Assembly: GCA_964640005.1 (NCBI GenBank)
Contig: CAZXGB010000001.1
Span: 103,456-167,455, forward strand
DNA length: 64,000 nt
From: an uncultured Actinomycetes bacterium
GTDB taxonomy: Bacteria > Chloroflexota > Dormibacteria > Dormibacterales > Dormibacteraceae
Direction: 5' to 3'
Every line of letters begins with the position of its first letter. Position 1 is the first letter of the stretch. Of the stretch, positions 14,232-52,550 are shown piece by piece. Under the pieces are notes generated by a model, which made no database searches, was not told the origin of the DNA, and was given only the letters and a program-made list of their open reading frames with translations. The translations under genes were made by a program, and so were the position numbers.

Positions 14232-14371
14232 CTGAGACCGACGGGCCGCGCCGGCGCGTTACGTCTTGACGATGCCTCAAACAGCAAGCGGCGGGCCCGG
14301 CGGCATGGCGGCGTTGTATCGTTCGCGCCAACAGGTGCGACGCGGATCGCGCTGAACCGGAGGGGTTTGGG

Positions 14372-15022: not shown

Positions 15023-15092
15023 CCCGGCGCCCTCCACAGTCGCCGCTTAACGTCGATCTTCACCAATCGCAAAAGATGGTCATTTCGCACCA

Positions 15093-15121
15093 TTGACCCG
15101 CGCCGTCTGGGCAGTTAGCCT
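15093..15121 (+). promoter_or_regulatory. Candidate sigma70-type promoter for the kinase/regulator operon
   Basis: TTGACC (15093-15098), 17-bp spacer, TAGCCT (15116-15121), in a lower-GC intergenic stretch upstream of 15251. Confidence 0.3.
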
Positions 15122-15250
15122 CATATCCGACACGAGAAATCAGGGCAAAGGGAGGGAGGTTGCCCTGGTAAAAGCAAGGCCTGTCCCGTGGGCGTTGCTC
15201 CGTGCGGGTTCTCCCATCGGAATTCCGCCAACTATTGGGAGGAGCAAGGG

Positions 15251-15955: not shown

Positions 15956-15966
15956 AGGAGGAGTTT

Positions 15967-16623
15967 GTGAGCGTAGCAGTCAGGGGTGCACGGGTTCTGG
16001 TGGTCGACGATCAGACGCTGTTCCGGACAGGCTTGACCAGCCTGCTCGCGCAAGACGAGCGGGTCGACGTCGTCGGCCAAGCGGTTGACGGGCTGGACGC
16101 GGTCAAGCAGGCCATCAAGCTGAAGCCAGACGTCGTCCTGATGGACATCAAGATGCCGAACCTCGACGGCATCGAGGCCACGCGCCAGATCGTCGAGGCG
16201 GCGCCCGACGTCAAGGTCCTCATGCTGACCACCTTCGAGACCGACAGCCAGGTGATACAGGCGCTCAAGGCGGGAGCGAGCGGCTATGTGCTGAAGGACT
16301 CGTCGGCCGCGGCGATCGTGAGCAGCATCGCGGCCGTGCTGTCCGGCGAGCGTGTGATGGCGAGCGTCGTCGCCAATCGCGTGTTGGAGATGCTCACGGG
16401 CACGACAACTCCCAAGGAGTTCTACGACGGACTCACGAACCGGGAGATCGAGATCCTCAAGCTGCTCGCGAACGGGATGGCGAACAAGCAAATCGCCTTC
16501 CGCCTGAAGATCAGCGAGAAGACGGTCCGCAACCACGTCAGCAACACGTACGAGAAGCTCGGTATCTACGACCGGTCGCAGGCGGTGCTCTACGCCGTCA
16601 AGAAGGGTCTGGTAGAGGTCTGA
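15967..16623 (+). CDS. NarL/LuxR-family response regulator (canonical)
   Basis: VLVVDDQTLF, DVVLMDIKMPNLDG, VLMLTTF, GYVLKD and HTH LTNREIEILKLLANGMANKQIAFRLKISEKTVRNHV. GTG 15967 follows AAAGGAGGAG (15954-15963). Confidence 0.9.
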   Translation: MSVAVRGARVLVVDDQTLFRTGLTSLLAQDERVDVVGQAVDGLDAVKQAIKLKPDVVLMDIKMPNLDGIEATRQIVEAAPDVKVLMLTTFETDSQVIQALKAGASGYVLKDSSAAAIVSSIAAVLSGERVMASVVANRVLEMLTGTTTPKEFYDGLTNREIEILKLLANGMANKQIAFRLKISEKTVRNHVSNTYEKLGIYDRSQAVLYAVKKGLVEV

Positions 16624-23486: not shown

Positions 23487-25079
23487 TCAGAGGCCCAGCT
23501 CGGCGAGACGCTGGGCGGCGTCCGAGTAGTACGGGTCGATCTCGAGCGCCCGGCGGTACGCCGCGCGGGCCGCGCCCCGATCGCCGCGGTCGAGCTCCAG
23601 ATCGCCCAGTTGCACGTACATGCCAGGCTCCGACTCGCCCAGCGCGGCCGCGAGTTGAAGCTCGGAGATCGTGCCGAGCTGCCAGTGGTACTGCGCCTGC
23701 AGCGGATCGACCGTGACCGAGCGCGACGCCAGGCCGTGGAAATACCACGTGTCGGCGAGCATGGGCAGGAAGCCGAACGCGACCGCGAGCAGCGCGGCTG
23801 GCACCGCCGCGACCGCGCCGACCATGGGTCGCGCGGCGACAGTCCGAGGCGTTGCGGCGGTCGCGGGCCGCGGCCCGGACGTTGCCACCCACAGGACGCC
23901 CGCGAGCACCCAGAACATTCCGGTCACCGGCGCCCAGTCGAAGTTGACCAGCACCCACGCCGAATATCCGGCCAGCGCGCTGGCGAGGGCCCGCACGGCG
24001 GGGTCCCTGCGGCGGCGCCATGCGAAGTAGGCCAGGACGGCCAGCACCGAGCCCGTGGCCAGCAGCCCGAGCAGGCCCTGCGTCGCGGCCAGGTCGATGG
24101 GCCCGGAGTGGATGCGGTCGAACGTCACGCCGGTGGCATAGTCCCGGTGCAGGAAATGGCCGAGGTTCACGCCGGTCGTGTCCTCGCCGAAACCGGTGAG
24201 CGGCCGTGCCGCAACCATCTGCAGGCCGTCCGCCCAGAGGTGCAGTCTCAGCTTGGGCGGGTCGCCGTTGAGCCGGCGCAGCGGCGAGTACACGAGGACG
24301 ACGAGCCCGATCGGAACCAGGGCCGCCGCGAGGGCCCCGGCGAGCGCGACCAGCCGCAGCGGCAGCGCCAGCACAACCATCACCGCCAGCGCCACGGCCA
24401 CGGCCACGAAACCGCTTCGGGAATTGCTGACGTAGAGGCCGAAGCCGAGCAGAACCAGAGACCCGGCCCACGCCCACAGCGGCCGGCCGCGCGAGCGCCA
24501 CACGCGCTCCACCGCGAGGGGAGCCGCCATGGCCACGAGAGCGGCGAGCATGTTGGCGTTGCCGAGGTCTCCGTCCGGCCGGAAGGGAACGTGCTGCGCC
24601 CACTGGGCCCACGCCTTGAGGCAGGCAACGCTCGTGCCCGCGACGAACGCGGCGATCAGCCAGTCGCGCTGGCGCGCGTCGCGCAGCAGCCATACCGTGG
24701 AGGCCAGGAGCCCGAGGTAGCCGAGCCGCACCGGCAGCGTCTCGTACCGGAAGTAGGACCCCGCCAGGCCGAGCGGCCACGAGGTCGAAAACGCGAAGGC
24801 GAGCAGGGCCGCCGCCGCCGAGGCGATGAGCGGCCACCGCAGCGCTCCAAGCGTGCCGTCGCGCCCGAACTGGAGCGCAAGCGCGATTCCGAGGCAGGCT
24901 CCGCCGATCACGAGGGCGGCGCGGGGCAGGATGAACCGGTCCGCCATCCAGGGCGCCACGAAGACCGGCAGGGCGGCGGCGAGGAAGGCCGGCAGGTACC
25001 CGCTCAGAGCGGCCGCGGAGAGGCGGCTCGCACGGCCCGCCTCAATCGGCGTGCCGGCCGCCCCCGTGATCGCGCTCAC
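23487..25079 (-). CDS. O-antigen ligase/polymerase-like (Wzy_C) polytopic membrane protein with C-terminal TPR-like tail
   Basis: At least 10 hydrophobic segments. It has a LYVSNSRSGFVAVAVALAV block typical of the O-antigen ligase family, and the C-terminus reads GDRGAARAAYRRALEIDPYYSDAAQRLAELG. Confidence 0.75.
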   Translation of the reverse strand: MSAITGAAGTPIEAGRASRLSAAALSGYLPAFLAAALPVFVAPWMADRFILPRAALVIGGACLGIALALQFGRDGTLGALRWPLIASAAAALLAFAFSTSWPLGLAGSYFRYETLPVRLGYLGLLASTVWLLRDARQRDWLIAAFVAGTSVACLKAWAQWAQHVPFRPDGDLGNANMLAALVAMAAPLAVERVWRSRGRPLWAWAGSLVLLGFGLYVSNSRSGFVAVAVALAVMVVLALPLRLVALAGALAAALVPIGLVVLVYSPLRRLNGDPPKLRLHLWADGLQMVAARPLTGFGEDTTGVNLGHFLHRDYATGVTFDRIHSGPIDLAATQGLLGLLATGSVLAVLAYFAWRRRRDPAVRALASALAGYSAWVLVNFDWAPVTGMFWVLAGVLWVATSGPRPATAATPRTVAARPMVGAVAAVPAALLAVAFGFLPMLADTWYFHGLASRSVTVDPLQAQYHWQLGTISELQLAAALGESEPGMYVQLGDLELDRGDRGAARAAYRRALEIDPYYSDAAQRLAELGL

Positions 25080-25957: not shown

Positions 25958-28489
25958 GTGGGTAAGTCAAACGGACGGTCGGTTGGGGCCCGTGGACGCG
26001 TCCGTGTCGACGGCAAGTTTCTTGCCCTGGACGGTGAGCGTTTCACCGTCCGCGGTGTGACCTATGGCACCTTTGCGCCTCGCGCCGACGGCGCCCTGTA
26101 CCCCGACACGGAGCAGATTCGCGCGGATCTCGAGGCGATGCGGTCGGCCGGATTCAACACGCTCCGCACCTACACCGCGCCGCCTCCCGACCTCCTGAGC
26201 ATCGCGGCCGAGCAGGACCTGCACGTCATCGCCGGCATCTTCTATCCCGACTGGCGATACCTCGTCGGCGACGGGCGGCGACGCCGGGCGCGCATCGCGT
26301 CCGAGGCCGCGGCGCAGGTGAGGGCGGACATGAAGCGGCTGGCGGGCCATGCCGAGGTCCTCGCCGTCTGCATCGGAAACGAGGTCCCCGCGGATGCGAT
26401 TCGCTGGGTGGGAAAGGGCGCTGTCGCGTCCGTGCTGGAAGGCCTCGCCGACCTGGCGCACGGGATCGATCCCGGGATGCTCGTCACCTACGGCGGCTAC
26501 CCCACGGGCGAGTACCTGACGCTCGAGCGTACAGACGTCGTCATGTTCAACGTCTTCCTCGAGCGGAGTGAGGACTTCCGCCGTTACCTGAACCGCCTCC
26601 ACAACCTCGCCGGCGACCGGCCGCTGCTGCTGGGTGAGCTCGGGCTGCACGCCGGGGCTTCGGCCGCCGACGAGGAGGCGCAGGCCGTGCTGATCGAGGA
26701 GCAGGTGAAGGTGGCGCTCGAGCGCGGCGCGGCCGGCACATGCCTGTTCTCCTGGACGGACGACTGGCACGTCGGAGGGAATCGGGTCGAGGGGTGGAGG
26801 TTCGGACTGACCCGCGCCGATCGCACCCCCCGGAGTGCGCTCGCCCGCGCGGCGAAGGCCCAGGCGATGACCGTCCGCGACCTGGACTGGGCGTGGCCCT
26901 CGATGAGCGTCGTGATCTGCGCGTGGAACTCGGCCGCGACGATCGACGAATGCCTGCAGCACGTTTGCGCGCTCGATTACCCGAACCTCGAGGTGATCGT
27001 GGTCGACGACGGCTCGACCGACGCGACCGCGGAGATCGCACGCCGCCACCGGCGGGTGCGTGTGCTCTCGGTGCCGCACGCCGGTCTGTCGGTGGCGCGG
27101 AACGCGGGCCTGGCCGCGGCCCGGGGCGACGTCGTCGCGTATCTGGACGCGGATGCATATCCCTCGCCCGAGTGGCCGTACTACCTGGCGCTCGGCATGG
27201 ACCGCGCCAACGTCGCCGCCGTGGGCGGCCCCAACCTGCCTCCCCCATCAGACCCGCTCAAGGCGCAGGCCGTGGCGCGGGCCCCGGGCGGCCCCTCGCA
27301 CGTGCTGCTCACGGACGACCGGGCCGAGCACATTCCCGGCTGCAACATGGCGTTCTGGCGGCAGATGGTGATCGAGATCGGGGGCTTCGACCCGATCTAC
27401 ACCGCGGCGGGCGACGACGTCGACCTCTGCTGGCGGCTGCTCGACCGCGGATACGCGATCGCCTTCCATCCGGCCGCGACCGTCTGGCACCACCGTCGCG
27501 GCGGCCGGCGCGCGTATCTGCGCCAGCAGCAGGGCTACGGGCGGGCTGAAACCCTCGTCGCCGCCCGCCACCCCGACCGTTTCACGAGCCTGGGCGGAGC
27601 GAGATGGCGCGGCGCCCTCTACAACGGCTTCCCACCGCTGCTCGCCCGCCAGCCGGTGTACCGCGGCCGCTTCGGCACGGCCGCCTTCCAGTCGATCTAC
27701 CGCGGCCAGGACCATTCCTTCGACCTGGCGCACCAGGCCGGCATCCCGCTGGCCGTGGCCCTCGTGCCCTTCCTCCTCAGCAACGTGCCCGGGATTCGCG
27801 GCGCGGGGCTGGTGGCGCTCGGGCTGATCGCCGGCCTGTTCGCGGTCGACGCGGCGCGGATCCGGCCTCCTCGCACCATGCCCCGCCTGAGCCTCGGCTT
27901 CCGGCTCGAGGTCGCGACCCTTTTCGTGCTGCAGCCGGTGGCCCGCCTGCTCGGCCGCCTGGCGTACTTCGACGACGCGAGCCGCGGCGTGCAGGCCGCC
28001 CCGTGGAGCAGCGCGGGATGGGCGACGCGAAAGCGAAACATGGTCATGGTCGCGACGCAGACGCCGCGCGTCGACCTGGCGGCGGAGCTGGTGCGGCACT
28101 TCCGGCGTAGGAGCTTCGCGGTCATCACCTCCACCGGCTGGGAGGAGCACGACTGCCGGGTGCTCGCCTCCACGCTGGTGGCCGGCGACGTCACCTCGAC
28201 GGCGCACGTGCCCGGCGTGGTCCAGTTCCGCGCCCGGAGCCGGCTCCGCGCGGCGCCGCTGGCGGGATTCCTGGTCCTGGCCGCGCTCGCGGCGACCGCC
28301 ACTCCGATCGCCGCGCTCATCGTGCTGCTCGCGGTCGGGGTCGAGCTGGCGCGAGGTTTGTGGTGCACGTGGTTCGTCATTCCATCCCTCGTGGTCGAGG
28401 CGATCGGCGTCACGCGCCAGGGGGCCGCTCACCCCGCGGAGGGCGCGATCACGTCCACCCCGCGCATCGGGGAGACGGCCAACTCATGA
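25958..28489 (+). CDS. Fusion protein: clan GH-A (GH2-TIM-like) hydrolase domain + GT2 glycosyltransferase + C-terminal membrane domain
   Basis: N-terminal part: FTVRGVTYG, FNTLRTY, CIGNEVP, LLLGELG. GT2 part: MSVVICAWNS, VIVVDDGSTD, AYLDADAY, GCNMAFWR, GDDVDLCWR. Several hydrophobic segments follow residue ~590. GTG 25958 is the start, and the stop overlaps the next start (ATGA). Confidence 0.85.
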   Translation: MGKSNGRSVGARGRVRVDGKFLALDGERFTVRGVTYGTFAPRADGALYPDTEQIRADLEAMRSAGFNTLRTYTAPPPDLLSIAAEQDLHVIAGIFYPDWRYLVGDGRRRRARIASEAAAQVRADMKRLAGHAEVLAVCIGNEVPADAIRWVGKGAVASVLEGLADLAHGIDPGMLVTYGGYPTGEYLTLERTDVVMFNVFLERSEDFRRYLNRLHNLAGDRPLLLGELGLHAGASAADEEAQAVLIEEQVKVALERGAAGTCLFSWTDDWHVGGNRVEGWRFGLTRADRTPRSALARAAKAQAMTVRDLDWAWPSMSVVICAWNSAATIDECLQHVCALDYPNLEVIVVDDGSTDATAEIARRHRRVRVLSVPHAGLSVARNAGLAAARGDVVAYLDADAYPSPEWPYYLALGMDRANVAAVGGPNLPPPSDPLKAQAVARAPGGPSHVLLTDDRAEHIPGCNMAFWRQMVIEIGGFDPIYTAAGDDVDLCWRLLDRGYAIAFHPAATVWHHRRGGRRAYLRQQQGYGRAETLVAARHPDRFTSLGGARWRGALYNGFPPLLARQPVYRGRFGTAAFQSIYRGQDHSFDLAHQAGIPLAVALVPFLLSNVPGIRGAGLVALGLIAGLFAVDAARIRPPRTMPRLSLGFRLEVATLFVLQPVARLLGRLAYFDDASRGVQAAPWSSAGWATRKRNMVMVATQTPRVDLAAELVRHFRRRSFAVITSTGWEEHDCRVLASTLVAGDVTSTAHVPGVVQFRARSRLRAAPLAGFLVLAALAATATPIAALIVLLAVGVELARGLWCTWFVIPSLVVEAIGVTRQGAAHPAEGAITSTPRIGETANS

Positions 28490-31400
28490 TCCGGCGCTAC
28501 TGGCGCGCAGCGTGGACCTTCGTGCCGTACCTGGGCCGCTACAAGCGGCTGGCGGCGGGATCGATCGTGCTCACGGTGTTCGGCGCGCTGGCCGACCTGG
28601 CCTCGCCGTGGCCCTTCGCCCTCCTGGTCGGCTACGTGCTGGTGCGCAAGCCCCCGCCCGCGCCCATCAGCGACATCTTCGGCCTCAACGCCGGCGTGCT
28701 GATCACGGCGGCGGTGACCGGTGGCTTCCTCCTCGTTTTCATCGTGCACGGCATCGCGGTGCTCAGCGAATGGATCAACACCAGGCTCGACCTGTCCATC
28801 GCGCTGGACTTCCGGAGCCGGCTGTTCGCGCACTGCCTCGAGCTGAGCGACTGCTTCACGGACGAGGCGGCGCCCGGTGACTTCATGTACCGCATCAACT
28901 ACGAGGCGCGGTCCGTCGGCGCGATGGCGGTCGCGGTCCCACCGCTGGCGCAGAGCCTGATCACACTGATCGGCTATTTCGTGATCGCGCTGAGCCTCGA
29001 TCCCGTGCTCGCGCTGCTGGCGCTGACGGTCGTGCCCTTCATCTACTACTCGACCGGCTATTACGCGAAGCGCATCGAGCCGCGCCTGGTCACGGTCCGG
29101 GGCCTGGAGGGCATCTCGCTGACGATGGTCAACACAGCGATGTCGATGATCCACGTCATCACGTCGTTCAACCGGCAGCGCGACGAGCACCTCCGCTTCA
29201 GACACCAGGGCGAGCGCGCGCGGGACATGCGCGTCGGCGTGACGGTGCGCCAGACGGTCTTCTCTCTGGTGGTCGCCCTGATCACGGCCGGCGGCACCGC
29301 GGCCGTGCTGTACGAGGGAGCGCAGCACGTGCTCAGCGGGCGCACGTCCATCGCCGCGCTCCTGGTGCTGATGGCGTACATCGCGTCGATGTACAAGCCG
29401 CTCGAGGCCCTGGCGCACACGGCCTCCCAACTCCAGGTGCTCTGCGTGAGCATCATGTTCTCCCGCCAGCTGCTCGAGCGGCAGCCGCTGGTCACCGAGC
29501 GGCACGGCGCCGTCGACATCCAGCGGGTCGCGGGCCACGTGCGATTCAAGCAGGTCGGCTTCGATTACCCGGGCCGGTCCGGAATCCTGCAGGACATCGA
29601 CTTCGAGGTCCAGCCGGGCGAGATGGTGGCCGTCGTGGGCATTACCGGCGCGGGCAAATCGACGATGCTTCAGCTGCTGCCGCGCTTCTTCGATCCGACG
29701 ACGGGCTCGATCGAGATCGACGGGCACGACCTGAGGGACCTCAAGCTCATGTCACTCCGTCACCAGATCGCGATGGTCAGACAGGAGCCGCTGCTGTTCC
29801 CGCGCAGCGTCGCGGAGAACATCGGCTACGCCAGGCCCGACGCGACGATGGAGGAGATCCAGGCCGCGGCCAGGGCTGCCAACGCTCACGACTTCATCGA
29901 GGCCCTTCCGCTCGGATACGAGACGGTGCTGGGCGAGCGGGGCGCGCGCATCTCCGGCGGCGAGAGGCAGCGCATCGCGCTGGCCCGGGCGTTTCTGAAG
30001 GACGCGCCGATCCTCGTGCTCGATGAGCCCACCTCTTCGATCGACTCGCAGACCGAGGCCGGGATCCTCGAGGCGCTGGAGCGCCTGACCGCCGGGCGGA
30101 CCACGTTCATTGCCGCGCACCGGCTGTCCACCATCCGGGCGGCGGACCGAGTGCTCGTGCTCGATCACGGGCGGCTGATCGAGAACGGCACGCCCGCCGA
30201 GTTGATGGGGAGGGACGGCCAGTTCGCCATGTTCAGCCGGCTGCAGAGCTTCGTCCCCAACCGTGAGGCGGCCGGCGCGAACGGCGCGAACGGGCACCAT
30301 ACCGTCGGGGAAGAGGAGCCGGAGGAGATCGCGGCCCCGAAGGCCGGCCGGCTCCTCGAGCGCAACACGCTGGTGCAGCTGGTCGACCGGGCCCAGACCC
30401 GCGGCGGCCGATACACCGGCAGCATCCGGTTGAAGCACCGGAAGGGAAGCGGAGTGATCTTCGCCGAGAACGGCGATTTTCACTCAGCCGACGGCGAGCT
30501 GGCCTCGGGCGACGAGCTCGTGATCCTCGCCCTGACGTGGCGGGACGACGAGTTCACTCTGACCATCGACCCCGAGGCTCCCCTGCCGGGAACCCGGAAC
30601 ATCACGATGTCGTACCGCGACATGCTGGCCGAGGCCGCCCGCCGGCAGACGGCGGCCTGGAGGCCGGGCCGCTCCGGTCGCGGGCGAAAGACGGCCGCGC
30701 CCGCCCCGCCCGCCCCGCCCGCGCCCCGGACCCCGGCGACCGAGCCGCCGGCCAGGCCGCAGCCGCCGCCCGCGCTCACCCTCTCCGTCGCCCTGCCGTC
30801 CACGCGGCCCAGCGTCGTCCTCCTGGGCAGCATGAGCCCGATGCCGGTCGGCGGCGTCATCTGGCAGACCCTGCAGTACATCGTCGGCTTCCAGCGCTTG
30901 GGCTATGACGTGTACTACGTCGAGACGCACGGCCGCTACCCGCACGAGATCACGCGGCGCTCAGACGAGGACGGCACCGCGCTCGCGGTCGAATTGATCC
31001 GTTCGGCGATGGCCAGAGTGAACATGGCCGGCCGGTGGTGTTACGTCGACGTGCACAACGAAGAGCGGCACCACGGAATGACGAAGGCCGAGCTCGATCG
31101 TCGCTACGAGGAGGCCGCGGCGCTGATCAACCTCCACGGCGGCACAGTCCCGCTGCCTCAGCACACAAAAACGGGGCGCCTCGTCTACCTGGAGACGGAC
31201 CCGGTGCCGATCCAGGTGGGAGTGGCCAACGGCAACCAGGTCGACATCGACTTCCTGGCTATGCACGACGCGCATTTCTCGTACGGCGAGAACTACGGCG
31301 CGCCCGACTGCCGCGTCCCGCAGTCGCCTCGCTTCGACTTTCAGCCCACGCGACAGCCGATCGTGCTCGAGTACTGGCCGTTTGCCGGCCAGACGTCACG

Positions 31401-31998
31401 GCCGTTCACCAGCGTCGGCAACTGGAACCAGCATCAGGACGTGACGCTCGACGGCGAGATTTACACGTGGAGCAAGCGGGTCGAGTTCCTGAAGTTCATC
31501 GACCTGCCGCGCCGGTCCGGCGCGCGCATGGAGCTCGCGCTGTCGCAGTGCGGACCCGACGATGCCGCGCTGCTGCGGGTCCACGGCTGGAACGTGCTCG
31601 ACGCGCTCGAGTTCTCGTACGACGCGGACGCCTACCGCGCGTATATCGCGGGCTCGCGCGCGGAGTTCACCGTCGCCAAGGACCAGAACGTGAGGCTGCG
31701 CAGCGGCTGGTTCAGCGACCGCAGCGCGAGCTACCTCGCCTCGGGCCGGCCGGTGGTCACGCAGGACACCGCGTTCGGCAACATCCTTCCGACCGGCGCC
31801 GGACTATTCGCCTTCTCGACCATGCAGGAGGCGGCGGAGGCGGTCAGGCGCATCGAGTCCGACTACGACCGGCAGCGGCGGGCCGCCCGCCGGATCGCCG
31901 AGGAGTGGTTCGACTCGGACATCGTGCTCGGCCGCCTGCTGCGCGATCTCGGCCTGCCCGTCACAGGCCGGCGCCGCACCCTCGCCGCGGCCCGCTAG
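28486..31998 (+). CDS. Tripartite fusion: type-1 ABC exporter (TMD+NBD) + DUF4388/PATAN-like domain + Pro-rich linker + GT-B-like domain (paralogue family)
   Basis: Six N-terminal TM segments. Walker A GITGAGKST, signature ISGGERQRIALARA, Walker B ILVLDEPTS, H-loop IAAHRL (to about 30250). The segment at 30343-30570, YTGSIRLKHRKGSGVIFAENGDFHSA...ELVILALTWRDDEFTL, reads as DUF4388-like. PAPPAPPAP linker at 30685-30774. From 30808 to the end it is homologous to 33256-34392, 34389-35501 and 42124-43296. Confidence 0.9.
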   Translation: MIRRYWRAAWTFVPYLGRYKRLAAGSIVLTVFGALADLASPWPFALLVGYVLVRKPPPAPISDIFGLNAGVLITAAVTGGFLLVFIVHGIAVLSEWINTRLDLSIALDFRSRLFAHCLELSDCFTDEAAPGDFMYRINYEARSVGAMAVAVPPLAQSLITLIGYFVIALSLDPVLALLALTVVPFIYYSTGYYAKRIEPRLVTVRGLEGISLTMVNTAMSMIHVITSFNRQRDEHLRFRHQGERARDMRVGVTVRQTVFSLVVALITAGGTAAVLYEGAQHVLSGRTSIAALLVLMAYIASMYKPLEALAHTASQLQVLCVSIMFSRQLLERQPLVTERHGAVDIQRVAGHVRFKQVGFDYPGRSGILQDIDFEVQPGEMVAVVGITGAGKSTMLQLLPRFFDPTTGSIEIDGHDLRDLKLMSLRHQIAMVRQEPLLFPRSVAENIGYARPDATMEEIQAAARAANAHDFIEALPLGYETVLGERGARISGGERQRIALARAFLKDAPILVLDEPTSSIDSQTEAGILEALERLTAGRTTFIAAHRLSTIRAADRVLVLDHGRLIENGTPAELMGRDGQFAMFSRLQSFVPNREAAGANGANGHHTVGEEEPEEIAAPKAGRLLERNTLVQLVDRAQTRGGRYTGSIRLKHRKGSGVIFAENGDFHSADGELASGDELVILALTWRDDEFTLTIDPEAPLPGTRNITMSYRDMLAEAARRQTAAWRPGRSGRGRKTAAPAPPAPPAPRTPATEPPARPQPPPALTLSVALPSTRPSVVLLGSMSPMPVGGVIWQTLQYIVGFQRLGYDVYYVETHGRYPHEITRRSDEDGTALAVELIRSAMARVNMAGRWCYVDVHNEERHHGMTKAELDRRYEEAAALINLHGGTVPLPQHTKTGRLVYLETDPVPIQVGVANGNQVDIDFLAMHDAHFSYGENYGAPDCRVPQSPRFDFQPTRQPIVLEYWPFAGQTSRPFTSVGNWNQHQDVTLDGEIYTWSKRVEFLKFIDLPRRSGARMELALSQCGPDDAALLRVHGWNVLDALEFSYDADAYRAYIAGSRAEFTVAKDQNVRLRSGWFSDRSASYLASGRPVVTQDTAFGNILPTGAGLFAFSTMQEAAEAVRRIESDYDRQRRAARRIAEEWFDSDIVLGRLLRDLGLPVTGRRRTLAAAR

Positions 31999-32002
31999 GG
32001 CG

Positions 32003-33259
32003 ATGTCTGGAGCCGCTTTCCCGCCAGACCTGGACCTGCGGCTGGTGTCCAAGCGCCCGGCCAGGCTTGCGGCCGAGACCGAGCGGTTCGTGCTGGACGC
32101 GCCGGCTCCGGCGCCTCCCGCGCCGGCCCCGGCGGGCGAGCCTGCGGCGTCGATCGTGGTGCTCACGCACGACAACCTGGCGTTCTCCCGGCTCTGCCTG
32201 GAGAGCGTGCTGGCGTCGCCTGAGCAATGTCCCTTCGAGCTGGTCGTGGTCGACAACGCATCGCGGGACGGCACCCCGGCCTACCTGCTCGAGCTCGCGG
32301 CGCGCGACGCCCGCGTGCGTCCGATCCTCCTGGGCACCAATCTCGGCTTTGCGGCCGGCGTGAACCTCGGACTGGACGCGGCGCTGGGCGGCGCCTTCGT
32401 CCTGCTGAACAACGACACCGTGGTGGCCCCCGGCTGGCTGACGCGGCTGCTGCGCCACCTGGACGAGCCCTCGGTCGGCCTCGCCGGCCCGGTGACAAAC
32501 GAAGCTCCGGGCCTGGCCCGCGTCGGCGTCTCCTACCGGACGTACGGCGAGTTCCTCGAGGCCGCGCGCGCCCGCGGCCGCGAAGGCGCTGGGGTCGATA
32601 CGGACCGGCTGACGCTGTTCTGCGCCGCGCTCAAGCGATCGGTGTACGAAGCGGTCGGCCCGCTGGACGAGCGCTTTGCCGTCGGGATGTTCGAGGACGA
32701 CGACTACTGCCTGCGCATCGAGGCCGCGGGCCTGAGGTGCCGGCTGGCGGAGGACGTGCTGGTCCACCACTTCGGCGAGGCGTCGTTCGGGCGGCTCGTG
32801 AGCGGAGGGGCGTGGAAGTCGATCTTCGCCGCGAACCGGCTGCGCTTCGAGGAGAAGTGGGACCGCGAATGGCCCGGGCACACCGCCCGCGACGAGCCCT
32901 CGTACCTGGACCTCGTGCGGCGCATGCGGTCGCTGGTCGAGACGCTTCCCGATAGCGCGCGCGTGCTCGTGGCGACCCGCGGCGACGACCGCATGTGCGC
33001 CATCCCGGGCCACACCGCGGGCCACTTCCCGCAGCTCCCCGACGGCACGTACGCGGGCAGCTACCCGGCGGACGACGACGCCGCGATCCGGCAGCTCGAG
33101 GATCTGCGCTCGCGCGGATGGACGCACATCGCGCTTCCCAACCCCGCGCGCTGGTGGCTCGACCACTATCCGCTCATGTCGCTGCACCTGGAGCGCTCCG
33201 GGGGCGCCGTGCTGGACGACCCGGCCACAGGCGTCGTGTTCCGGCTGGCGCCGTCGTGA
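32003..33259 (+). CDS. GT2 glycosyltransferase with C-terminal ~115-aa accessory module
   Basis: SIVVLTHDNL, VVVDNASRDGT, LLNNDTVV, FEDDDYCLR. The C-terminal module is homologous to the repeats of 48409-49131. Confidence 0.85.
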   Translation: MSGAAFPPDLDLRLVSKRPARLAAETERFVLDAPAPAPPAPAPAGEPAASIVVLTHDNLAFSRLCLESVLASPEQCPFELVVVDNASRDGTPAYLLELAARDARVRPILLGTNLGFAAGVNLGLDAALGGAFVLLNNDTVVAPGWLTRLLRHLDEPSVGLAGPVTNEAPGLARVGVSYRTYGEFLEAARARGREGAGVDTDRLTLFCAALKRSVYEAVGPLDERFAVGMFEDDDYCLRIEAAGLRCRLAEDVLVHHFGEASFGRLVSGGAWKSIFAANRLRFEEKWDREWPGHTARDEPSYLDLVRRMRSLVETLPDSARVLVATRGDDRMCAIPGHTAGHFPQLPDGTYAGSYPADDDAAIRQLEDLRSRGWTHIALPNPARWWLDHYPLMSLHLERSGGAVLDDPATGVVFRLAPS

Positions 33260-34392: not shown

Positions 34393-35501
34393 GGGAAAGA
34401 AGGGGGACGGTCGCAATCGCCGGCGCGATCGCGCAGCGTCCCGGACGCGGCGGACATGCGTGGGTGTTCCTGCAGCACCTCCTCGGCCTGCGCCGGCTCG
34501 GCTGGGACGTGGTCTTCATCGACCGCGTCGAGCCGGGGATGGCGGCGGACGTCGATTACGTCGCCGCGGTGATGGACGAGTTCGAGATCCCTTATTCGGT
34601 GCTCGACGGCGCCGGCGGCGCGTTCGGCCTCGGCCGCGAGGCGCTCGCGCGCAGGTTGAAGGGCGCCGCCATGCTGGTGAACGTGATGGGCTATCTCGGA
34701 GACGAAGACCTCCTGGCGCTGCCCGAGCGGCGTGTCTTTCTCGACCTCGATCCGGGCTTCACGCAGATGTGGCACGCGCTGGGCCTCGCTCAGATGGTGC
34801 GCGGCCACGACGCGTACGTGACCGTCGGCGAGAACATCGGCCGCGAGGGCTGCGCCATCCCGACCTGCGGCGTGGAGTGGGTCACCACCCCGCCTCCGGT
34901 CGTGCTGGACGAATGGCCGTGGAGCGGCGAGGAGGGGCGCTCGGTCACCGGCATCGGAAGCTGGCGCGGCCCCTACGGGCCGGTCCGCTACGGCGACGTG
35001 GACTACGGCCTGCGCGTGCACGAGTTCAGAGCTTTCGCCGGCGTGCCCGCGCGCTGCGCGGCCCAGGCGTTCGAGTACGCGCTCGACATCGATCCGATGG
35101 AGGTCGCCGACGTCGACCTGCTGACGCGCGGCGGCTGGCGGCTGCTGCCCCCGGACGCGGTCGCGGCCACGCCGAGCCGGTACCGCGAGTTCGTTCAGGG
35201 CTCCATGGCCGAGTTCATGGTGGCGAAGGGCATGTACGTCAAGTCCCGCAGCGGCTGGTTCAGCGACCGCAGCGCGTGCTATCTCGCCAGCGGCAGGCCC
35301 GTCATCGCGCAGGACACCGGCGGCGCAAAGCACGAGGCGGGACTGCTCTCGTTCGCCACCGCGGAAGAGGCGGTCGAGGCGGTCGGCCAGGTGATGGCCG
35401 ACTACCCGCGCCACCGGCGCGCCGCGCGCGATATCGCCGAGGGCTGTTTCGACTCCGACCGCGTGCTCGGGCGGCTCGTCGACCGGGTGCTCGCGGCATG
35501 A
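34389..35501 (+). CDS. GT-B-fold-like putative glycosyltransferase, paralogue 3
   Basis: GTG 34389 overlaps the upstream stop (GTGA). It has the same conserved blocks (FLDLDPGFTQMW, PPPVVLDEWP, SGWFSDRSACYLASGRPVIAQDTG, FDSDRVLGRL). Confidence 0.7.
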   Translation: MRERRGTVAIAGAIAQRPGRGGHAWVFLQHLLGLRRLGWDVVFIDRVEPGMAADVDYVAAVMDEFEIPYSVLDGAGGAFGLGREALARRLKGAAMLVNVMGYLGDEDLLALPERRVFLDLDPGFTQMWHALGLAQMVRGHDAYVTVGENIGREGCAIPTCGVEWVTTPPPVVLDEWPWSGEEGRSVTGIGSWRGPYGPVRYGDVDYGLRVHEFRAFAGVPARCAAQAFEYALDIDPMEVADVDLLTRGGWRLLPPDAVAATPSRYREFVQGSMAEFMVAKGMYVKSRSGWFSDRSACYLASGRPVIAQDTGGAKHEAGLLSFATAEEAVEAVGQVMADYPRHRRAARDIAEGCFDSDRVLGRLVDRVLAA

Positions 35502-36505
35502 ACCCGGCGGTCCGCCGGCGGGTGGCGGCGGCGGTGAGCGACTGGGTGGCAGACGAGCATGGAGCCGCGGTCGAGCGGATGAGGATCACCCGTTCCGCAT
35601 ACGCGAGCAGCGCTTCGATCCTCAACGTGCACCTGACGCTCGCCGGCGGGGAGCGCGTGCGCGCCGTCTACAAGGCGGCCGGCGCGGGCGCGCAGCTGCC
35701 CGCGGCGCGCGGGGTCAAGCCGGAGGCCGTCTGCGACCCGGGCCGCGAGACGTGGGTCTACGAATCGGTGCTCGCCGGCGACGGCGTCGCGGACGCCCCG
35801 CGCCTCCTGTCCTCCGGCACGCTCGCGGACGGCGGGCGCTGGCTGCTGCTCGAGTGGGCCGGCAGCGTGGACCTGGGGCAGGTCGGCGACCGGGCGGTCT
35901 GGAGCGAGGCGGCCGCCCGGCTGGCGCGGATGCACGCCTGGGGCGAGGCGCGGGTCGACGGCCTGGTTCGTGGATCGGCGCTGCGCTGGGACGACCCGGC
36001 CCTGCACCTGATGTGGGCCCGGCGCGCCCGAGACTCCTACGCGGGCGAGAAACGCGATCCGCTGGCCCCGCTCTGGGACCGGTATGCCACCGTCGCCGAA
36101 CGGGTCGCGGCCCTGCCCGGGACGCTCGTCCACGGCGATCTCAACGCGGCCAACGTCCTGGTCACGCGCTCCCCGGCGGGAATGCGCATCCGCTTCATCG
36201 ACTGGGAGACGGCGGGCGTGGGCCCGGGTCTGCTCGACCTCGCCTCGCTGACCAGCGGCAGGCTGCCGGAGAAGCATCGGGCCGCGATGCTGGCCGCGTA
36301 CCGCGCGAACCTGGGCCCGAGCCGGCTGGGCGCGCTGCCCGCCGCCGACTTCGACGAGGCGCTCGCCTGGTGCCGGCTGGCGCTCGCCGTGCAGTGGCTG
36401 GGCTGGTCGCCGGGCTGGTCGCCGCCGCCCGCGCACGCGCACGACTGGCGCGCCGAGGCGCTCGGGCTGGCGCGGAGACTCGGCGTGGTGGAGGTGGCGG
36501 AGTGA
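35498..36505 (+). CDS. APH/choline-kinase-fold small-molecule kinase
   Basis: ATG 35498 overlaps the upstream stop (ATGA). Catalytic loop LVHGDLNAANVLV and FIDWETAGVGPGLLDLA (Brenner/DFG-like) motifs. Confidence 0.8.
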   Translation: MNPAVRRRVAAAVSDWVADEHGAAVERMRITRSAYASSASILNVHLTLAGGERVRAVYKAAGAGAQLPAARGVKPEAVCDPGRETWVYESVLAGDGVADAPRLLSSGTLADGGRWLLLEWAGSVDLGQVGDRAVWSEAAARLARMHAWGEARVDGLVRGSALRWDDPALHLMWARRARDSYAGEKRDPLAPLWDRYATVAERVAALPGTLVHGDLNAANVLVTRSPAGMRIRFIDWETAGVGPGLLDLASLTSGRLPEKHRAAMLAAYRANLGPSRLGALPAADFDEALAWCRLALAVQWLGWSPGWSPPPAHAHDWRAEALGLARRLGVVEVAE

Positions 36506-37323
36506 GCGCGGCCGTGCACCCGCGTTCCTTCCTCTTCGTGACGCTGGACTCCTGCCGCTACGACACGTTCGTGAGCGCCTCGACGCCGGCCTTCGATCGA
36601 GTCGGTGTGACGCATCGCGCGATGGCGCCGGGCAACTACACGTACGCGTCGCACGCGGCGATGTTCGTCGGCTTCACCCCCGGCGTCTTCGAGGTCGACG
36701 AGCCCTTCGTCAACCCGAAGTTCGGGCGCATCTTCAAGATGGCCTATCCGCCGCCGCTGCACACGCGCCGCGATTTCGTCGCGCTCGAGGGCGCCAACAT
36801 CGTCGAGGGCTTCGGCCGGCTCGGCCACACGACGATCGGCACCGGCGCGGTGGGCTGGTTCGACCCCAAGGCGCCCACGGCCCACGTCCTCACCGGCTCG
36901 TTTCAGCGCTACCTCTACCCTGGCAACCCGTGGTCGCTGCGCCGCCAGGTGGCCTTCGTGGAGGAGGAGCTTGACCGCGCCGGCGACGCGCCCGTTCTCG
37001 TGTTCGTCAACGTGGGCGAGACGCACGTCCCCTACTACCACGAGGGCGCGCCGTGGTCGCCCGACGACAACCCGTGCGTCCCGTTCTCCAAGACCAACGA
37101 CGCAGCCGAGTCCCGCCGGCGCCAGACCGCCTGCCTCGAGTGGGTCGACCGGGAGCTCGCGGGGGTCGTGGAGCGCTTCGCCGGGGCGAACGTCCTGATC
37201 TGCGGCGACCACGGGGACGCGTGGGGCGAGGACGGCCTGTGGGAGCACGGAATCCATCATCAGAAGGTGCTCGAGGTGCCGCTTCTGATGAAGCTGTCCA
37301 ACCCTCCGGCGCCGGTCCGGTAG
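36502..37323 (+). CDS. Alkaline-phosphatase-superfamily enzyme (type I phosphodiesterase/phosphotransferase-like)
   Basis: GTG 36502 overlaps the upstream stop (GTGA). FLFVTLDSCRYDTF (metal-site Asp block), NYTYASHAAMFVGFTPG (candidate nucleophile Thr), ICGDHGDAWGEDGLWEHG. Confidence 0.65.
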   Translation: MSAAVHPRSFLFVTLDSCRYDTFVSASTPAFDRVGVTHRAMAPGNYTYASHAAMFVGFTPGVFEVDEPFVNPKFGRIFKMAYPPPLHTRRDFVALEGANIVEGFGRLGHTTIGTGAVGWFDPKAPTAHVLTGSFQRYLYPGNPWSLRRQVAFVEEELDRAGDAPVLVFVNVGETHVPYYHEGAPWSPDDNPCVPFSKTNDAAESRRRQTACLEWVDRELAGVVERFAGANVLICGDHGDAWGEDGLWEHGIHHQKVLEVPLLMKLSNPPAPVR

Positions 37324-37382
37324 CGCCCGGCGTTCGCCGTCCGATTACCCGCCCTTAGCCATCGGGCGGATAGCCTCCCAAC

Positions 37383-39119
37383 GTGGGCGGGGACTTGGAT
37401 CCGCCGGCGCACGTCCTCCGGGGTGAGCCCCTTCCGGACGGGGCAGAGGCGTCGCTCCTGGACGCGATCGACCGCCACGCGGTCGAGATGCCGGAGCGAA
37501 GGGCGCTCGAGCTTCCCGAGCAGGGCATGACCATCTCGTGGCGGGAGCTCCGGCAGAGATCGCTCGAGGTCGCGGCGGCGCTGCGGGACTCCGGCGTGCG
37601 CCGCGGCGAGCTGGTGGGCCTGATGCTGCGGAACGACGAGCTGTTCGTGCCCGGGCTCCTCGGCATCCTCCATCTGGGCGCCGTCGCGGCGCCGATGCCG
37701 ATTCCGGGCGCGTTCGCGGACGTCGAGGTGTACGCCGAGCACATCCGCGGGATGATCGCGGCGGCCGGCCTGCGCCACGTGCTGCACGACTCGTCGCTGC
37801 CGAGCGAGCACACGCAGGCCGCGGTGCGCGGCAGCGCCGAGATCACGTGGATCGACGGCTCACCCCGGCGGCCGGAGCGCGAGTTCGAGCCCCGCGAGCG
37901 TCCGGCGCCCGGCGACCTGGCGCTCGTCTCCTACACCTCCGGCAGCACGTCCGCCCCGAAGGGGGTCGAGCTGACCCACGCCAACGTGTCGACGGCGATC
38001 AGCGCCTTCGGCGTGGCGACCGGCCTCGGCCCGGACGACGCGTGGGGCGTGTGGACCCCGCTCTTCCACGACTTCGCCCTGATCTCGATGCTCACCGCCC
38101 TGGTCTTCGGAGCCGCGGTCTGGATCTGGTCGCCCACGCGGTTCATCCGCAACCCCGGGCGCTGGCTCGCCGAGTTCGGGCGCGGCGGCTGCACGCACTA
38201 CTCGGGCCCGAACTTCAGCTTCGATCTGATGCGCGACTCGGCCACGGACGAGGGCCTCGCGGGCGTCAGCCTCGCCGCCTGGAGGGTGGCGGTCAGCGGC
38301 GGGGAGCCCGTGAGCGCCGCCACCGTGAGTCGCTTCACCGAACGCTTCGCCCCCTACGGCGTGCGCCCGGAGACGATCGTGCCCGGATACGGCCTCGCCG
38401 AAGCCACCCTGGCCGTCTCGGTGCCGGCTCGGAACACGCGGCCGCGCGTGGTCACCGTCAGCCGCGAGGGCCTGACGGAGCGGCGGCGCGTGGAGCACGT
38501 CGAGCCAGGAGATCCCGGAGCCCGCGCCCTCGTCTCGGTCGGCAGGGCCGCGCCCGGGATCGAGGTGCGCATCGTGGACGGTCTGCGTCAGGACCTCCCC
38601 GACGGCCATGTGGGCGAGATCGAGGTCCGCGGCCCCTCGGTCACGCGCGGCTACCGCGGGCACCCGGACGCGGCCCCTGACGGCTGGTTCAAGACCGGGG
38701 ACCTGGGCTTTGTCGAGGACGGAGGACTCTTCATCTGCGGCCGGATCAAGGACGTGGTCAACGTGCGCGGGACCAAGTACCACCCCGAAGACCTCGAGCC
38801 GATCGCCGGCGAGGTGGAAGGGGTGCGCAAGGGCCGCTGCTGCGTCGTGGGCGAGGGCGAGACGCATGAGCGCATGGCGGTCATCGCCGAGACGCGCCTG
38901 CGTGGGGAGGACCTGGGTCGCCTCCGGACCGAGATCGAGGAACGCCTCACGCGCCGGCTGGGCATCGGGGACATCAGGGTGTACCTGGTCGAGCCCCGCA
39001 CGATCCAGGTGACGAGCAACGGCAAGGTGCGGCGCCAGCTCATGCGGCGCCGGCTCGAGAGCGGCGAGCTGGCCGACCTGGAGAGCGTGGCCCGCGAGGC
39101 TGAGGTCCCGGTCGCATGA
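37383..39119 (+). CDS. Fatty-acyl-AMP/CoA ligase (adenylate-forming enzyme)
   Basis: Motifs VSYTSGSTSAPKGVELTH, PLFHDF, YGLAEATL, FKTGDLGF, GRIKDVVNVRGTKYHPEDLE and a terminal SNGKVRR. The start is uncertain (GTG 37383). Confidence 0.85.
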   Translation: MGGDLDPPAHVLRGEPLPDGAEASLLDAIDRHAVEMPERRALELPEQGMTISWRELRQRSLEVAAALRDSGVRRGELVGLMLRNDELFVPGLLGILHLGAVAAPMPIPGAFADVEVYAEHIRGMIAAAGLRHVLHDSSLPSEHTQAAVRGSAEITWIDGSPRRPEREFEPRERPAPGDLALVSYTSGSTSAPKGVELTHANVSTAISAFGVATGLGPDDAWGVWTPLFHDFALISMLTALVFGAAVWIWSPTRFIRNPGRWLAEFGRGGCTHYSGPNFSFDLMRDSATDEGLAGVSLAAWRVAVSGGEPVSAATVSRFTERFAPYGVRPETIVPGYGLAEATLAVSVPARNTRPRVVTVSREGLTERRRVEHVEPGDPGARALVSVGRAAPGIEVRIVDGLRQDLPDGHVGEIEVRGPSVTRGYRGHPDAAPDGWFKTGDLGFVEDGGLFICGRIKDVVNVRGTKYHPEDLEPIAGEVEGVRKGRCCVVGEGETHERMAVIAETRLRGEDLGRLRTEIEERLTRRLGIGDIRVYLVEPRTIQVTSNGKVRRQLMRRRLESGELADLESVAREAEVPVA

Positions 39120-39772
39120 GGCGTGCCCTGGCCCGTCTTCTGCTCGCGTCCGCGAGCGCGGCCGTGCTCGGCGCCTGTGGTGGCGCCCAGCCCGGTGCTC
39201 CGGACTTCCGGCAGGCCTTTGGCGTGATCGACGCTCCTTGCGCCGCCGGGCTCGCGCCGTCGACGGCCGTGCAGCATTGCGTCGCGCACGTGGTGCTGCA
39301 GGACGCGGGCGGTGAGGGAATCGGGCACGCCACCCTCCAGGTCCCGCTGAAGGCCGCCAGGACGGGCTCGCCCCTGGCCCCCGCCGTCTGCGGGATGGCC
39401 ATCCCCGACACTCCCGCGGGCGGCTACTCCGACCTCGTGTGCAACTTCGACGTGCCGCCTGGCGACACCATCGCCGGCTTTCCCGTCATCGGGTCCATCG
39501 ACTACGCGACGGGCAGCACGCGCACCTCCGCCGGGTTCGACTTCGGGGGCGCCGGCTCTCTGATTCTGGCCGCGGCCACGCTGCTGCTCGCGCTGGCGCT
39601 GCTGCTCGCGGCGCCCTGGCGGCGGGGCACGCCCGCGGTCCTTCTCGCTCCGGCCGCCTCGGCAGACGAGCTCGGGCCCGACCGGTCGCCCGAGTCCCGG
39701 CCGGCGCCGCGTGTGATGGAACGGAGGCGCGACGTGGACGCCGAGTACGACCTTCCCTCGATTCCCCGCTGA
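39116..39772 (+). CDS. Cys-rich lipoprotein with C-terminal TM anchor (paralogue A)
   Basis: ATG 39116 overlaps the upstream stop (ATGA). Lipobox AAVLGAC. Conserved HCVAHVVLQDAGGEGIGHATLQVPL...CGMAIPDT...DLVCNFDVPPG, then the hydrophobic segment LILAAATLLLALALLLAAPW and a charged tail. Confidence 0.7.
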   Translation: MRRALARLLLASASAAVLGACGGAQPGAPDFRQAFGVIDAPCAAGLAPSTAVQHCVAHVVLQDAGGEGIGHATLQVPLKAARTGSPLAPAVCGMAIPDTPAGGYSDLVCNFDVPPGDTIAGFPVIGSIDYATGSTRTSAGFDFGGAGSLILAAATLLLALALLLAAPWRRGTPAVLLAPAASADELGPDRSPESRPAPRVMERRRDVDAEYDLPSIPR

Positions 39773-39773
39773 G

Positions 39774-49131: not shown

Positions 49132-49151
49132 CTACCTTTTCCGACCCCTTC

Positions 49152-52548: not shown

Positions 52549-52550
52549 CC

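Follow-up and report, generated by a model that had tools for sequence, protein, structure and literature searches.

Why would an ATP-binding cassette (ABC) exporter carry a glycosyltransferase-like domain on its own chain? The question is raised by one gene (28486..31998) in a stretch of 64,000 nucleotides from an uncultured Actinomycetes bacterium that GTDB places in the Dormibacteraceae (Chloroflexota; GCA_964640005.1, contig CAZXGB010000001.1, positions 103,456 to 167,455); "the window" below means the whole of this stretch. The encoded protein runs from a transmembrane domain (TMD) and a nucleotide-binding domain (NBD) through a PATAN-like domain and a proline-rich linker into a GT-B-fold domain (Table 1). 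The fusion does not stand alone. It is part of a widespread module in which an exporter, a GT-B protein and two family 2 glycosyltransferase (GT2) parts belong together, and which occurs in several fusion states; only the one described here has a PATAN-like insert. The answer that we favor is that a glycan or glycolipid would be put together on the cytoplasmic side of the membrane, by enzymes tethered to the exporter, and then exported at the expense of ATP.

One reading frame from exporter to GT-B domain

Is the fusion real? In DNA of ~70% G+C, such as the window, spurious long open reading frames (ORFs) are common, and coding frames are therefore judged by the G+C content of third codon positions (GC3). 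The frame is a single ORF (28360..31998, +) with no interruption; GC3 is 0.82-0.98 in each 180-nt window from ~28480 to the stop, and second-position G+C is 0.35-0.62 in the same windows, with the sole exception of the proline-rich stretch, where CCN codons raise it to 0.83. Because GC3 is constantly high in one frame, nothing in the gene points to a frame switch. Translation starts at the ATG at 28486, which shares bases with the stop codon of the preceding gene (ATGA), lies 11 nt downstream of GGGGAG, yields an N-terminus (MRRRYWQAAW) that agrees with that of the orthologue P0127 (MIRRYWRAAW), and was chosen by the gene calls on both the NCBI contig (183 kb) and a Logan contig (1170-aa product). 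The Logan assembly of SRR12266073 encodes exactly the same 1170-aa protein and differs from the window by one single-nucleotide polymorphism, at 28118, outside the fusion gene; this contig confirms the assembly, though it is drawn from the same population.

Relatives provide an independent view. The full protein was searched with HMMER, exhaustively, against 1.84 billion representatives. The orthologue P0127 (1160 aa, 73% identity) aligns in one piece across residues 1-1169 and sits on a 212-kb metagenomic contig with the same ten-gene operon in identical order. Two further relatives, L002/P0001 (66% identity, truncated by the contig) and L004, a soil metagenome-assembled genome (MAG) labelled Candidatus Solibacter (76% identity in the ABC part, 68% in the GT-B part), keep an uninterrupted frame from the NBD through the PATAN-like domain and the linker to GT-B. 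Nei-Gojobori comparisons with L002 and L004, in which dS is near saturation so that the values are rough, give dN/dS of 0.12-0.28 for the NBD, 0.20-0.30 for GT-B and 0.31-0.47 for the PATAN-like domain, which is thus under purifying selection; the spacer and linker range from ~0.4 to above 1. The acidic, low-complexity spacer shares only 27-36% identity with its relatives (dN/dS ~0.7-1.7), and the linker differs among relatives in length and sequence and has a dN/dS near 1 against L002, but its frame is preserved and contains no stop. The pattern reads as that of folded, functional domains on a freely evolving tether that never gains a stop.

These data bear on the suspicion that the long ORF arose artificially, through a missed frameshift, a missed stop or a chimeric assembly that joined an ABC gene to a GT-B gene. 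The suspicion is natural enough: most related genomes have them as two genes a short distance apart, which one indel could join. But GC3 exceeds 0.82 in one frame across the 546 nt between the modules, and these encode a conserved, selected domain; the same fused ORF with the same insert occurs in P0127, L002 and L004, which come from different samples and are 66-76% identical; and a second assembly gives the identical protein. GC3 continuity, the P0127 alignment, the fused relatives and the dN/dS pattern led us to reject the artefact, which is essentially excluded. The initial annotation had proposed a single polypeptide and suggested looking for the same fusion in other genomes; the frame bears out the proposal, and the fusion is indeed present in P0127, L002/P0001 and L004.

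What kind of exporter is it? The N-terminal part matches Pfam ABC_membrane (PF00664, residues 26-305, E 1.2e-22) and ABC_tran (PF00005, residues 368-517, E 8e-34), with six hydrophobic transmembrane (TM) helices in segments 22-53, 64-99, 143-192 (two helices), 250-279 and 281-307. A six-helix ABC_membrane domain and an NBD with intact motifs in one chain make it a type IV ABC exporter, in line with the complete half-transporter proposed earlier. Sequence matches in the PDB are ABCB19, P-gp, MsbA and Sav1866, the last two being the best bacterial ones; the most similar curated models in NCBIfam are MsbA, the glucan exporter NdvA and HepA. The protein scores far below each of their equivalog cut-offs (404 vs 602, 374 vs 733 and 327 vs 725 bits, respectively), as it does below those of all its other NCBIfam hits, and therefore represents a separate subfamily. 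From the motifs we infer ATP-driven export or flipping. The six-helix topology places everything after TM6 in the cytoplasm.

The C-terminal domain has no PDB counterpart at the sequence level (the last 580 aa gave only a chance match in the proline-rich linker) and only a weak Pfam match, to Glyco_trans_1_2 (E 2e-4, 21.6 bits vs a cut-off of 25); the Glycos_transf_1 and Glyco_transf_4 models do not match it. Its predicted structure is clear: the AlphaFold2 (AF2) model, built from a 71-sequence alignment, is confident (pLDDT 93.2, pTM 0.92) and has the two Rossmann-like domains and interdomain cleft of the GT-B fold. Foldseek finds 191 PDB matches at E<=1e-3, the top 50 all GT-B glycosyltransferases, led by 7fga (tll1591; E 3e-11, TM-score 0.60) and including the entries 7qsg and 1xv5; the enzymes represented include the methylmannose-polysaccharide mannosyltransferase of M. 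hassiacum, T4 alpha-glucosyltransferase, BshA, MshA, PimA, HepE and SenB. Residues 776-1160 are homologous over their full length to three stand-alone window genes (35-36% identity, E 1e-44 to 2e-59 by BLASTP). A ~395-aa domain with three homologues in the locus and a GT-B-like structure is what the initial annotation had anticipated. It had named a predicted structure unlike GT-B as grounds for refutation, which the model does not provide. The 31 columns that are invariant over 71 family members, stand-alone copies and GT-B-GT2 fusions among them, are also kept in all four window copies; they include the PVGG loop, D905, H927, E1060, S1077 and R1079 (fusion protein numbering). The EX7E glutamates of GT4 enzymes are not among them, and canonical GT4 membership was rejected for this reason. 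Nucleotide-sugar-dependent transfer by this domain is plausible on the strength of its fold, the invariant residues and purifying selection. The family is large, with >5800 homologues that are typically 55-58% identical; most are stand-alone proteins of ~390-410 aa or ~818-aa proteins in which GT-B is followed by a GT2 and a ~110-aa tail (e.g. P0012). Neither NCBIfam nor Pfam has a name for it.

Between exporter and GT-B lies a domain that the initial annotation had matched to DUF4388 and sized at ~75 aa. The match is supported as a distant one, and the size needs correcting: the domain is ~105 aa long, and all six homologous copies have DUF4388 as their best-scoring Pfam family (E down to 1.3e-5) and share 27 invariant columns. 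The full protein matches DUF4388 at E 0.011; the isolated segment matches PF14332 at E 2.1e-4 and 21.7 bits (gathering score 25), over profile positions 19-119 of 122. The AF2 model (four sequences; pLDDT 79.5, pTM 0.73) has the order H-H-E-E-E-H-E-H. A distant relationship to DUF4388/PATAN is thus supported at the sequence level. Neither the middle segment by itself nor a profile of six sequences retrieved anything in word-indexed searches, which missed even the known P0001 and P0004 and say nothing about the rarity of the domain. Downstream, the linker carries AAPAPPAPPAP, the kind of repeat that had been noted before. In the closest relative derived from a genome, L004:9017-9952 (DATMMS010000003.1), two tandem PATAN-like domains lie between NBD and GT-B in a fused ORF of ~1330 aa; the domain of P0004/L001 resembles the second of these copies. 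P0004 itself (520 aa, PATAN-like plus GT-B) was considered as a split form and rejected, since its frame runs open to the contig edge. Given the ~68% G+C of the L004 locus and its synteny with the window, the assignment of this MAG contig to Acidobacteriota may be worth checking.

A conserved module and its fusion states

Is the partnership of exporter and GT-B peculiar to this lineage? A scan of GTDB genomes with the single fusion protein found no relatives, whereas a scan with a profile of the GT-B family did retrieve them: 80 loci from GTDB species genomes, which were annotated by tblastn with the window proteins. They belong to Actinomycetota (Solirubrobacterales, Acidimicrobiia and Propionibacteriales), Planctomycetota (including the cultured Singulisphaera acidiphila), Verrucomicrobiota, Acidobacteriota, Gemmatimonadota and Chloroflexota. 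Four parts recur in a set order: a protein combining a TIM barrel like that of glycoside hydrolase family 2 (GH2) with a GT2 and four TM helices; the ABC exporter (40-55% identical to that of the window); GT-B; and a GT2 with a tail. In the window they occupy three adjacent, co-directional genes, and the P0127 contig and most of the 80 loci contain them as well. The ABC gene is separate and directly upstream in 58 of the 80 loci, ending a few dozen bases from the start of GT-B; in nine others ABC and GT-B share one ORF, which in eight of the nine extends into GT2. Separate or fused, the two are immediate neighbors in ~67 of the 80. The remaining loci are mostly truncated by contig ends or rearranged: the ABC gene lies just downstream in L029 and in L036, the locus of Singulisphaera acidiphila DSM 18658 near 5.46-5.48 Mb of NC_019892, where the order is permuted and the four parts are still together.

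Fusion is a recurrent state of this module. Across 83 loci, GT-B is joined to GT2 in 44, alone in 28, part of ABC-GT-B-GT2 in eight and of ABC-GT-B in three; it runs on into GT2 in 52. On a neighbor-joining tree of GT-B domains the ABC fusions fall at about five separate positions, each with unfused neighbors, a count that is approximate because the tree has no bootstrap and fissions are indistinguishable from fusions. Such repeated fusion or fission of the same partners implies a functional, probably physical, partnership. Among the representatives, P0129 and P0132 are further ABC-GT-B fusions, P0128 (1481 aa) and P0130 (1393 aa) are triple ABC-GT-B-GT2 fusions like those in the eight loci, and P0133 is NBD-GT-B-GT2-GT2. 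In these other fusions an Ala/Pro/Gly linker alone joins NBD and GT-B; the PATAN-like insert is confined to the clade of the window. The initial annotation knew of no described example of this architecture. A literature search on ABC-exporter/glycosyltransferase fusions, on this GT-B family and on the module likewise found nothing relevant, which is weak evidence since coverage of subscription journals is incomplete; the architecture itself nevertheless recurs in metagenomes, and only the PATAN-like insert is specific to one clade.

The separate ABC genes of other genomes have extensions of their own: unrelated C-terminal regions of 70-320 aa, whose variety marks the C-terminus of the NBD as a hotspot for accessory domains in this subfamily. 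Close relatives of the subfamily at 50-54% identity (e.g. of 944, 967 and 1143 aa) bear other appendages: P0135 ends in HEAT repeats, and others have ~220 additional residues at the N-terminus. These exporters seem generally prone to gaining accessory domains. One short motif stands out. GT-B ends in "LLxDLGL" (LLRDLGLPV, residues 1150-1158, ~31933..31959 in the window), and separate ABC genes in several Solirubrobacterales and Conexibacter loci (L055, L064, L066, L070, L074 and L075) also end in it, at the close of helical C-terminal extensions (70-130 aa) that otherwise look unrelated; it may serve as a short interaction site common to both or be left over from an earlier fusion.

The flanking parts carry GT2 domains. 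The 843-aa protein, which has a counterpart upstream of the ABC gene in the majority of the 80 loci, matches Glycos_transf_2 (E 6.5e-32) and Glyco_hydro_2_C (E 5.6e-5) in Pfam; in the PDB, its barrel matches the GH2 catalytic domain 9fz9 (E 2e-10) and its GT2 part the GT2 domains of chondroitin and heparosan synthases. Among curated models, this GT2 is nearest to that of the mycofactocin glycosyltransferase MftF (E 6e-44), at a score under the cut-off. The barrel has no signal peptide; a GH-like domain that is apparently cytoplasmic and fused to a membrane GT2 is itself unusual. The downstream part, a GT2 with its tail, is joined to the C-terminus of GT-B in most other genomes. The ~110-aa tail domain, which has no Pfam match, lies at two places in the window (32873..33256, +, and 48814..49125, -) and is also found in most of L005-L082; 68 related loci contain it, 52 of them in two or more copies; its motif reads ...GDD...HFPQ..DG.YAG..PAD......LE.LR..G.......P....WWLDHY.... 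The second window copy forms the N-terminus of a 240-aa gene (48409..49131, -; 36% identity, E 7e-17). The tail may be a docking or regulatory domain shared by enzymes of the module.

Table 1. Features of the fusion gene, the module and the accessory operon, in window coordinates
Feature	Coordinates	Strand	Basis
Module gene 1, 843 aa: GH2-like TIM barrel, GT2 and four C-terminal TM helices	25958..28489	+	Pfam, PDB
Fusion gene, 1170 aa + stop: TMD, NBD, PATAN-like domain, Pro-rich linker, GT-B	28486..31998	+	ORF list, GC3, relatives
TMD, type IV (ABCB/MsbA-like) half-exporter, six TM helices, residues ~1-330	28486..29475	+	Pfam, hydropathy
NBD, residues ~340-590, catalytic motifs all intact	29503..30255	+	Pfam ABC_tran, motifs
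Walker A GITGAGKST, residue 385	nt 29638	+	read from sequence
Q-loop VRQE, residue 431	nt 29776	+	read from sequence
Signature ISGGERQR, residue 489	nt 29950	+	read from sequence
Walker B with catalytic Glu, ILVLDEPTS, residue 509	nt 30010	+	read from sequence
H-loop AAHRLST, AHR at residue 544	nt 30115	+	read from sequence
Acidic low-complexity spacer, residues 591-619	30256..30342	+	read from sequence
PATAN/DUF4388-like domain, residues ~620-723, ~105 aa	30343..30654	+	Pfam PF14332, AF2
Pro/Ala/Arg-rich flexible linker, residues 724-775, with AAPAPPAPPAP	30655..30810	+	read from sequence
GT-B-fold glycosyltransferase-like domain, residues 776-1170	30811..31995	+	AF2, Foldseek, paralogues
Module part 4, 418 aa: GT2 and ~110-aa unannotated tail	32003..33259	+	Pfam Glycos_transf_2, E 9e-23
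Stand-alone GT-B paralogue, 378 aa	33256..34392	+	BLASTP, 35% identity, E 1e-44
Stand-alone GT-B paralogue, 370 aa	34389..35501	+	BLASTP, 35% identity, E 2e-59
Accessory operon genes: APH-like kinase, STM4013-family sulfatase-like hydrolase, FAAL-like enzyme, two membrane proteins	35498..41498	+	Pfam, NCBIfam
Stand-alone GT-B paralogue, 390 aa	42124..43296	-	BLASTP, 36% identity, E 1.8e-57; Pfam Glyco_trans_1_2, E 5e-6

Gene context in the window

What might the module make? Judging from its predicted gene content, the locus is an envelope glycoconjugate cluster. The accessory plus-strand genes, found in the same order on the P0127 contig, include a hydrolase of the STM4013/SEN3800 family (E 5e-40), a fatty-acyl-AMP-ligase-like enzyme that matches the FAAL subfamily (E 7e-92), and membrane proteins of 218 aa and of 574 aa, the latter GT-C/PMT_2-like (39774..41498). 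A minus-strand set (43558..50234) comprises an alpha/beta hydrolase, a GT2, a GT4, the tail-domain protein and a sulfotransferase-like gene, with the fourth GT-B nearby, and a Wzy_C/O-antigen-ligase-like protein with TPR repeats is encoded upstream (23487..25079, -). The acyl-AMP ligase, kinase and sulfotransferase, which lie outside the conserved core of the module, suggest that the product may be a decorated glycolipid or lipid-anchored glycan. Sugar-nucleotide genes were not recognized among the window genes scanned.

Farther from the cluster, a 2050-aa ORF (6503..12655, -) with 14 PKD repeats and CarboxypepD_reg-like and SdrD/SpaA-like domains presumably encodes a large surface protein; GH-like proteins lie near it (4885..6483, and 16670..19375, GH5 cellulase-like), as do several LuxR-type two-component regulators (12767..16623). 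On the other side, the glycan cluster is followed by a Pst-like phosphate ABC importer (50384..54950, +; two BPD_transp_1 permeases, an ATPase and a PBP_like_2 binding protein) and by a sortase gene (56913..57776, +), which suggests a monoderm, Actinomycetota-like host.

Proposed synthesis at the exporter and its known counterparts

How would these parts work together? We put the probability that exporter-tethered enzymes assemble the product on the cytoplasmic face, before its ATP-driven export, at about 0.6. The fusion protein would homodimerize into a type IV (MsbA/PglK/ABCB-like) exporter with two tethered GT-B domains on the cytoplasmic side, and would be the central component of a conserved envelope-glycan module; its partners would be the upstream membrane GT2 with the GH2-like domain, the downstream GT2 with its tail and the extra GT-B paralogues. 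From nucleotide sugars, the GT2 and GT-B enzymes would make a glycan or glycolipid at the inner leaflet, the tethered GT-B performing one transfer step beside the substrate entrance of the transporter, and the finished or capped product would be handed directly to the transporter and flipped or exported with ATP. The PATAN-like domain would probably dock a partner, a cluster enzyme or a regulator, at the NBD region, or modulate the ATPase. Coupled synthesis and export had already been proposed in the initial annotation; the comparative data (~67 neighboring pairs in 80 loci, about five fusion positions) strengthen this proposal and stop short of proof. The accompanying analogy to synthases is loose: a flexible linker speaks for tethering near the exporter, not for a rigid synthase-channel unit.

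Several points weigh against this picture. The EX7E glutamates are absent from GT-B, the aligned positions being G1074 and the non-conserved T1082 (profile alignment with Gtf3 and WbaZ), so that catalysis is argued from fold and conservation only. The linker, ~50 residues long, fast-evolving and rich in proline, would provide proximity without fixed geometry, which makes direct channelling speculative. Most genomes manage with unfused genes, which shows that the parts can function without fusion, and the number of fusion positions is subject to the limits of the tree described above. The window copy of the PATAN-like domain stays under the Pfam gathering score, and Foldseek found no significant neighbor of its AF2 model in the PDB (best E 0.86). 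Finally, no priming phosphoglycosyl-transferase was recognized among the window genes scanned.

Could the tethered GT-B be non-catalytic, a recognition or gating module that binds the finished glycan or a nucleotide sugar and licenses ATP-driven export, with the chemistry left to the paralogues and GT2? The C-terminus of Wzt, an O-antigen exporter subunit, is a carbohydrate-binding domain, and GtfB is the non-catalytic GT-B partner in GtfA-GtfB pairs. GT-B occupies the same position after the NBD as the Wzt accessory domain, lacks the canonical glutamates, and shares its locus with enough paralogues (four GT-B in all) to leave room for specialization. However, the fused copy retains every one of the family's invariant residues, bears no mark of a degenerate paralogue and has a dN/dS as low as that of the NBD, and the orthologous GT-B, mostly the sole copy by the ABC gene and fused to GT2, fits an enzyme better; a purely recognitive role is quite unlikely. 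Nor is it necessary that anything be handed over: the product might be a polyprenyl-phosphate-linked mono- or oligosaccharide and the ABC part a plain PglK/Wzk-type flippase that feeds the extracytoplasmic GT-C enzyme and the Wzy_C-like protein, the fusion being a mere convenience of co-expression. The type IV fold is common to PglK and MsbA, both candidate recipients are encoded in the window, and a flexible, poorly conserved linker would suit mere co-localization. What speaks against such a flippase is that the GT-C-like gene is undetected in other loci at E<=1e-10, and thus lies outside the conserved core, and that fusions at several tree positions, triple ones included, are hard to explain by co-expression, which tight operon coupling already provides. 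We regard it as rather improbable, and prefer assembly by exporter-tethered enzymes.

A bolder view is that the module represents an unrecognized, widespread envelope-glycan route in which a type IV ABC exporter serves the biosynthetic enzymes as a physical scaffold: GT-B, joined in some lineages by GT2, would be attached covalently or docked via shared tail or C-terminal motifs; synthesis, capping and export would be coupled mechanically and kinetically; and the PATAN-like domain would link ATPase cycling to the transferase or to an external regulator. If true, this would add a fourth organizational principle to the Wzx/Wzy-, Wzm/Wzt- and synthase-dependent pathways; it is a tentative proposal and, for the present, a doubtful one.

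Why does it matter? In ABC-dependent glycan pathways, handover of the product from cytoplasmic glycosyltransferases is mostly deduced from weak protein-protein interactions; here the link between ABC exporter and enzyme has repeatedly been made covalent (ABC-GT-B, ABC-GT-B-GT2), which points out the enzyme that would work at the transporter. The fusions also offer natural single-chain complexes of 1170-1481 aa for cryo-EM and biochemistry. The module is present in many abundant, little-studied soil groups (Solirubrobacterales, Acidimicrobiia, Planctomycetota, Verrucomicrobiota, Acidobacteriota and Gemmatimonadota), and since it has no named family and no publication that we could find, its product could be a common envelope component that has so far escaped recognition. 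A PATAN-like domain beside an ABC ATPase would widen the range of PATAN beyond type IV pilus motors.

Which known systems does the fusion resemble? The exporter part resembles MsbA, PglK/Wzk, NdvA/ChvA and HepA, type IV-fold half-exporters of lipid-linked glycans or glucans: six TM helices and an NBD in one chain, complete ATPase motifs and, as in this group, a place in a glycan biosynthesis cluster. The difference lies after the NBD, where the window exporter adds a PATAN-like domain and GT-B (and some relatives a GT2 as well); to our knowledge, exporters of the MsbA/PglK/NdvA/HepA type carry no enzyme domain there. For the enzyme part, the two-Rossmann GT-B fold is that of retaining GT4-type enzymes (PimA, MshA, BshA, tll1591 and M. 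hassiacum ManT; TM-score ~0.55-0.60) and of Gtf3-type GT-B enzymes. The C-terminal "AAGxPVV" helix-strand motif aligns with Gtf3 and WbaZ, and the N-terminal Gly-Gly loop is PVGG, but sequence identity to GT4-type enzymes is 10-14% and the EX7E glutamates are not conserved.

The PATAN-like domain recalls the PATAN of PatA-type response regulators (PixE, PixG and PatA), whose Pfam profile it resembles over nearly the whole length in all six copies, the window copy scoring below the gathering cut-off. PATAN is a protein-interaction and output domain that, by experiment, binds the secretion ATPase PilB1 and PilC and is membrane-localized, PixE-PilB1 being an interaction with a membrane-associated ATPase motor (bioRxiv 10.1101/2021.06.11.447907). 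The likeness may extend to its surroundings: PATAN binds a secretion ATPase in the known case, and the PATAN-like domain of the window adjoins an ATPase domain. Unlike PixE, PixG and PatA, it has no receiver domain and no alpha-helical insertion, and lies between an NBD and a glycosyltransferase-like domain.

Three systems show how enzyme or accessory domains can be combined with transport. In synthases (BcsA, hyaluronan synthase and PgaC), enzyme and translocation share one polypeptide, sometimes with a regulatory domain such as PilZ between them; there, however, GT2 forms its own channel and no ATPase is involved, whereas the fusion described here is predicted to be ATP-driven, with GT-B on a flexible tether instead of packed against the channel. 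PCAT/AMS exporters (PCAT1 and SunT) fuse a substrate-modifying enzyme domain to a type IV ABC half-exporter, so that the last processing step takes place at the transporter; theirs is an N-terminal C39 peptidase acting on peptides, in contrast to the C-terminal glycosyltransferase-like domain of the window protein. In Wzm/Wzt (E. coli O9a), a cytoplasmic accessory domain appended C-terminally to the NBD ties export to the state of glycan biosynthesis, and the kinase-like gene of the window cluster recalls the chain-terminating WbdD; Wzm/Wzt differs in having a type V (ABC-2) fold, TMD and NBD as separate proteins, and a beta-sandwich binding module as its appendage. We know of no Wzt, PCAT or synthase that combines a type IV ABC exporter with a glycosyltransferase. 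The fusion would work like an ABC-transporter-dependent glycan pathway.

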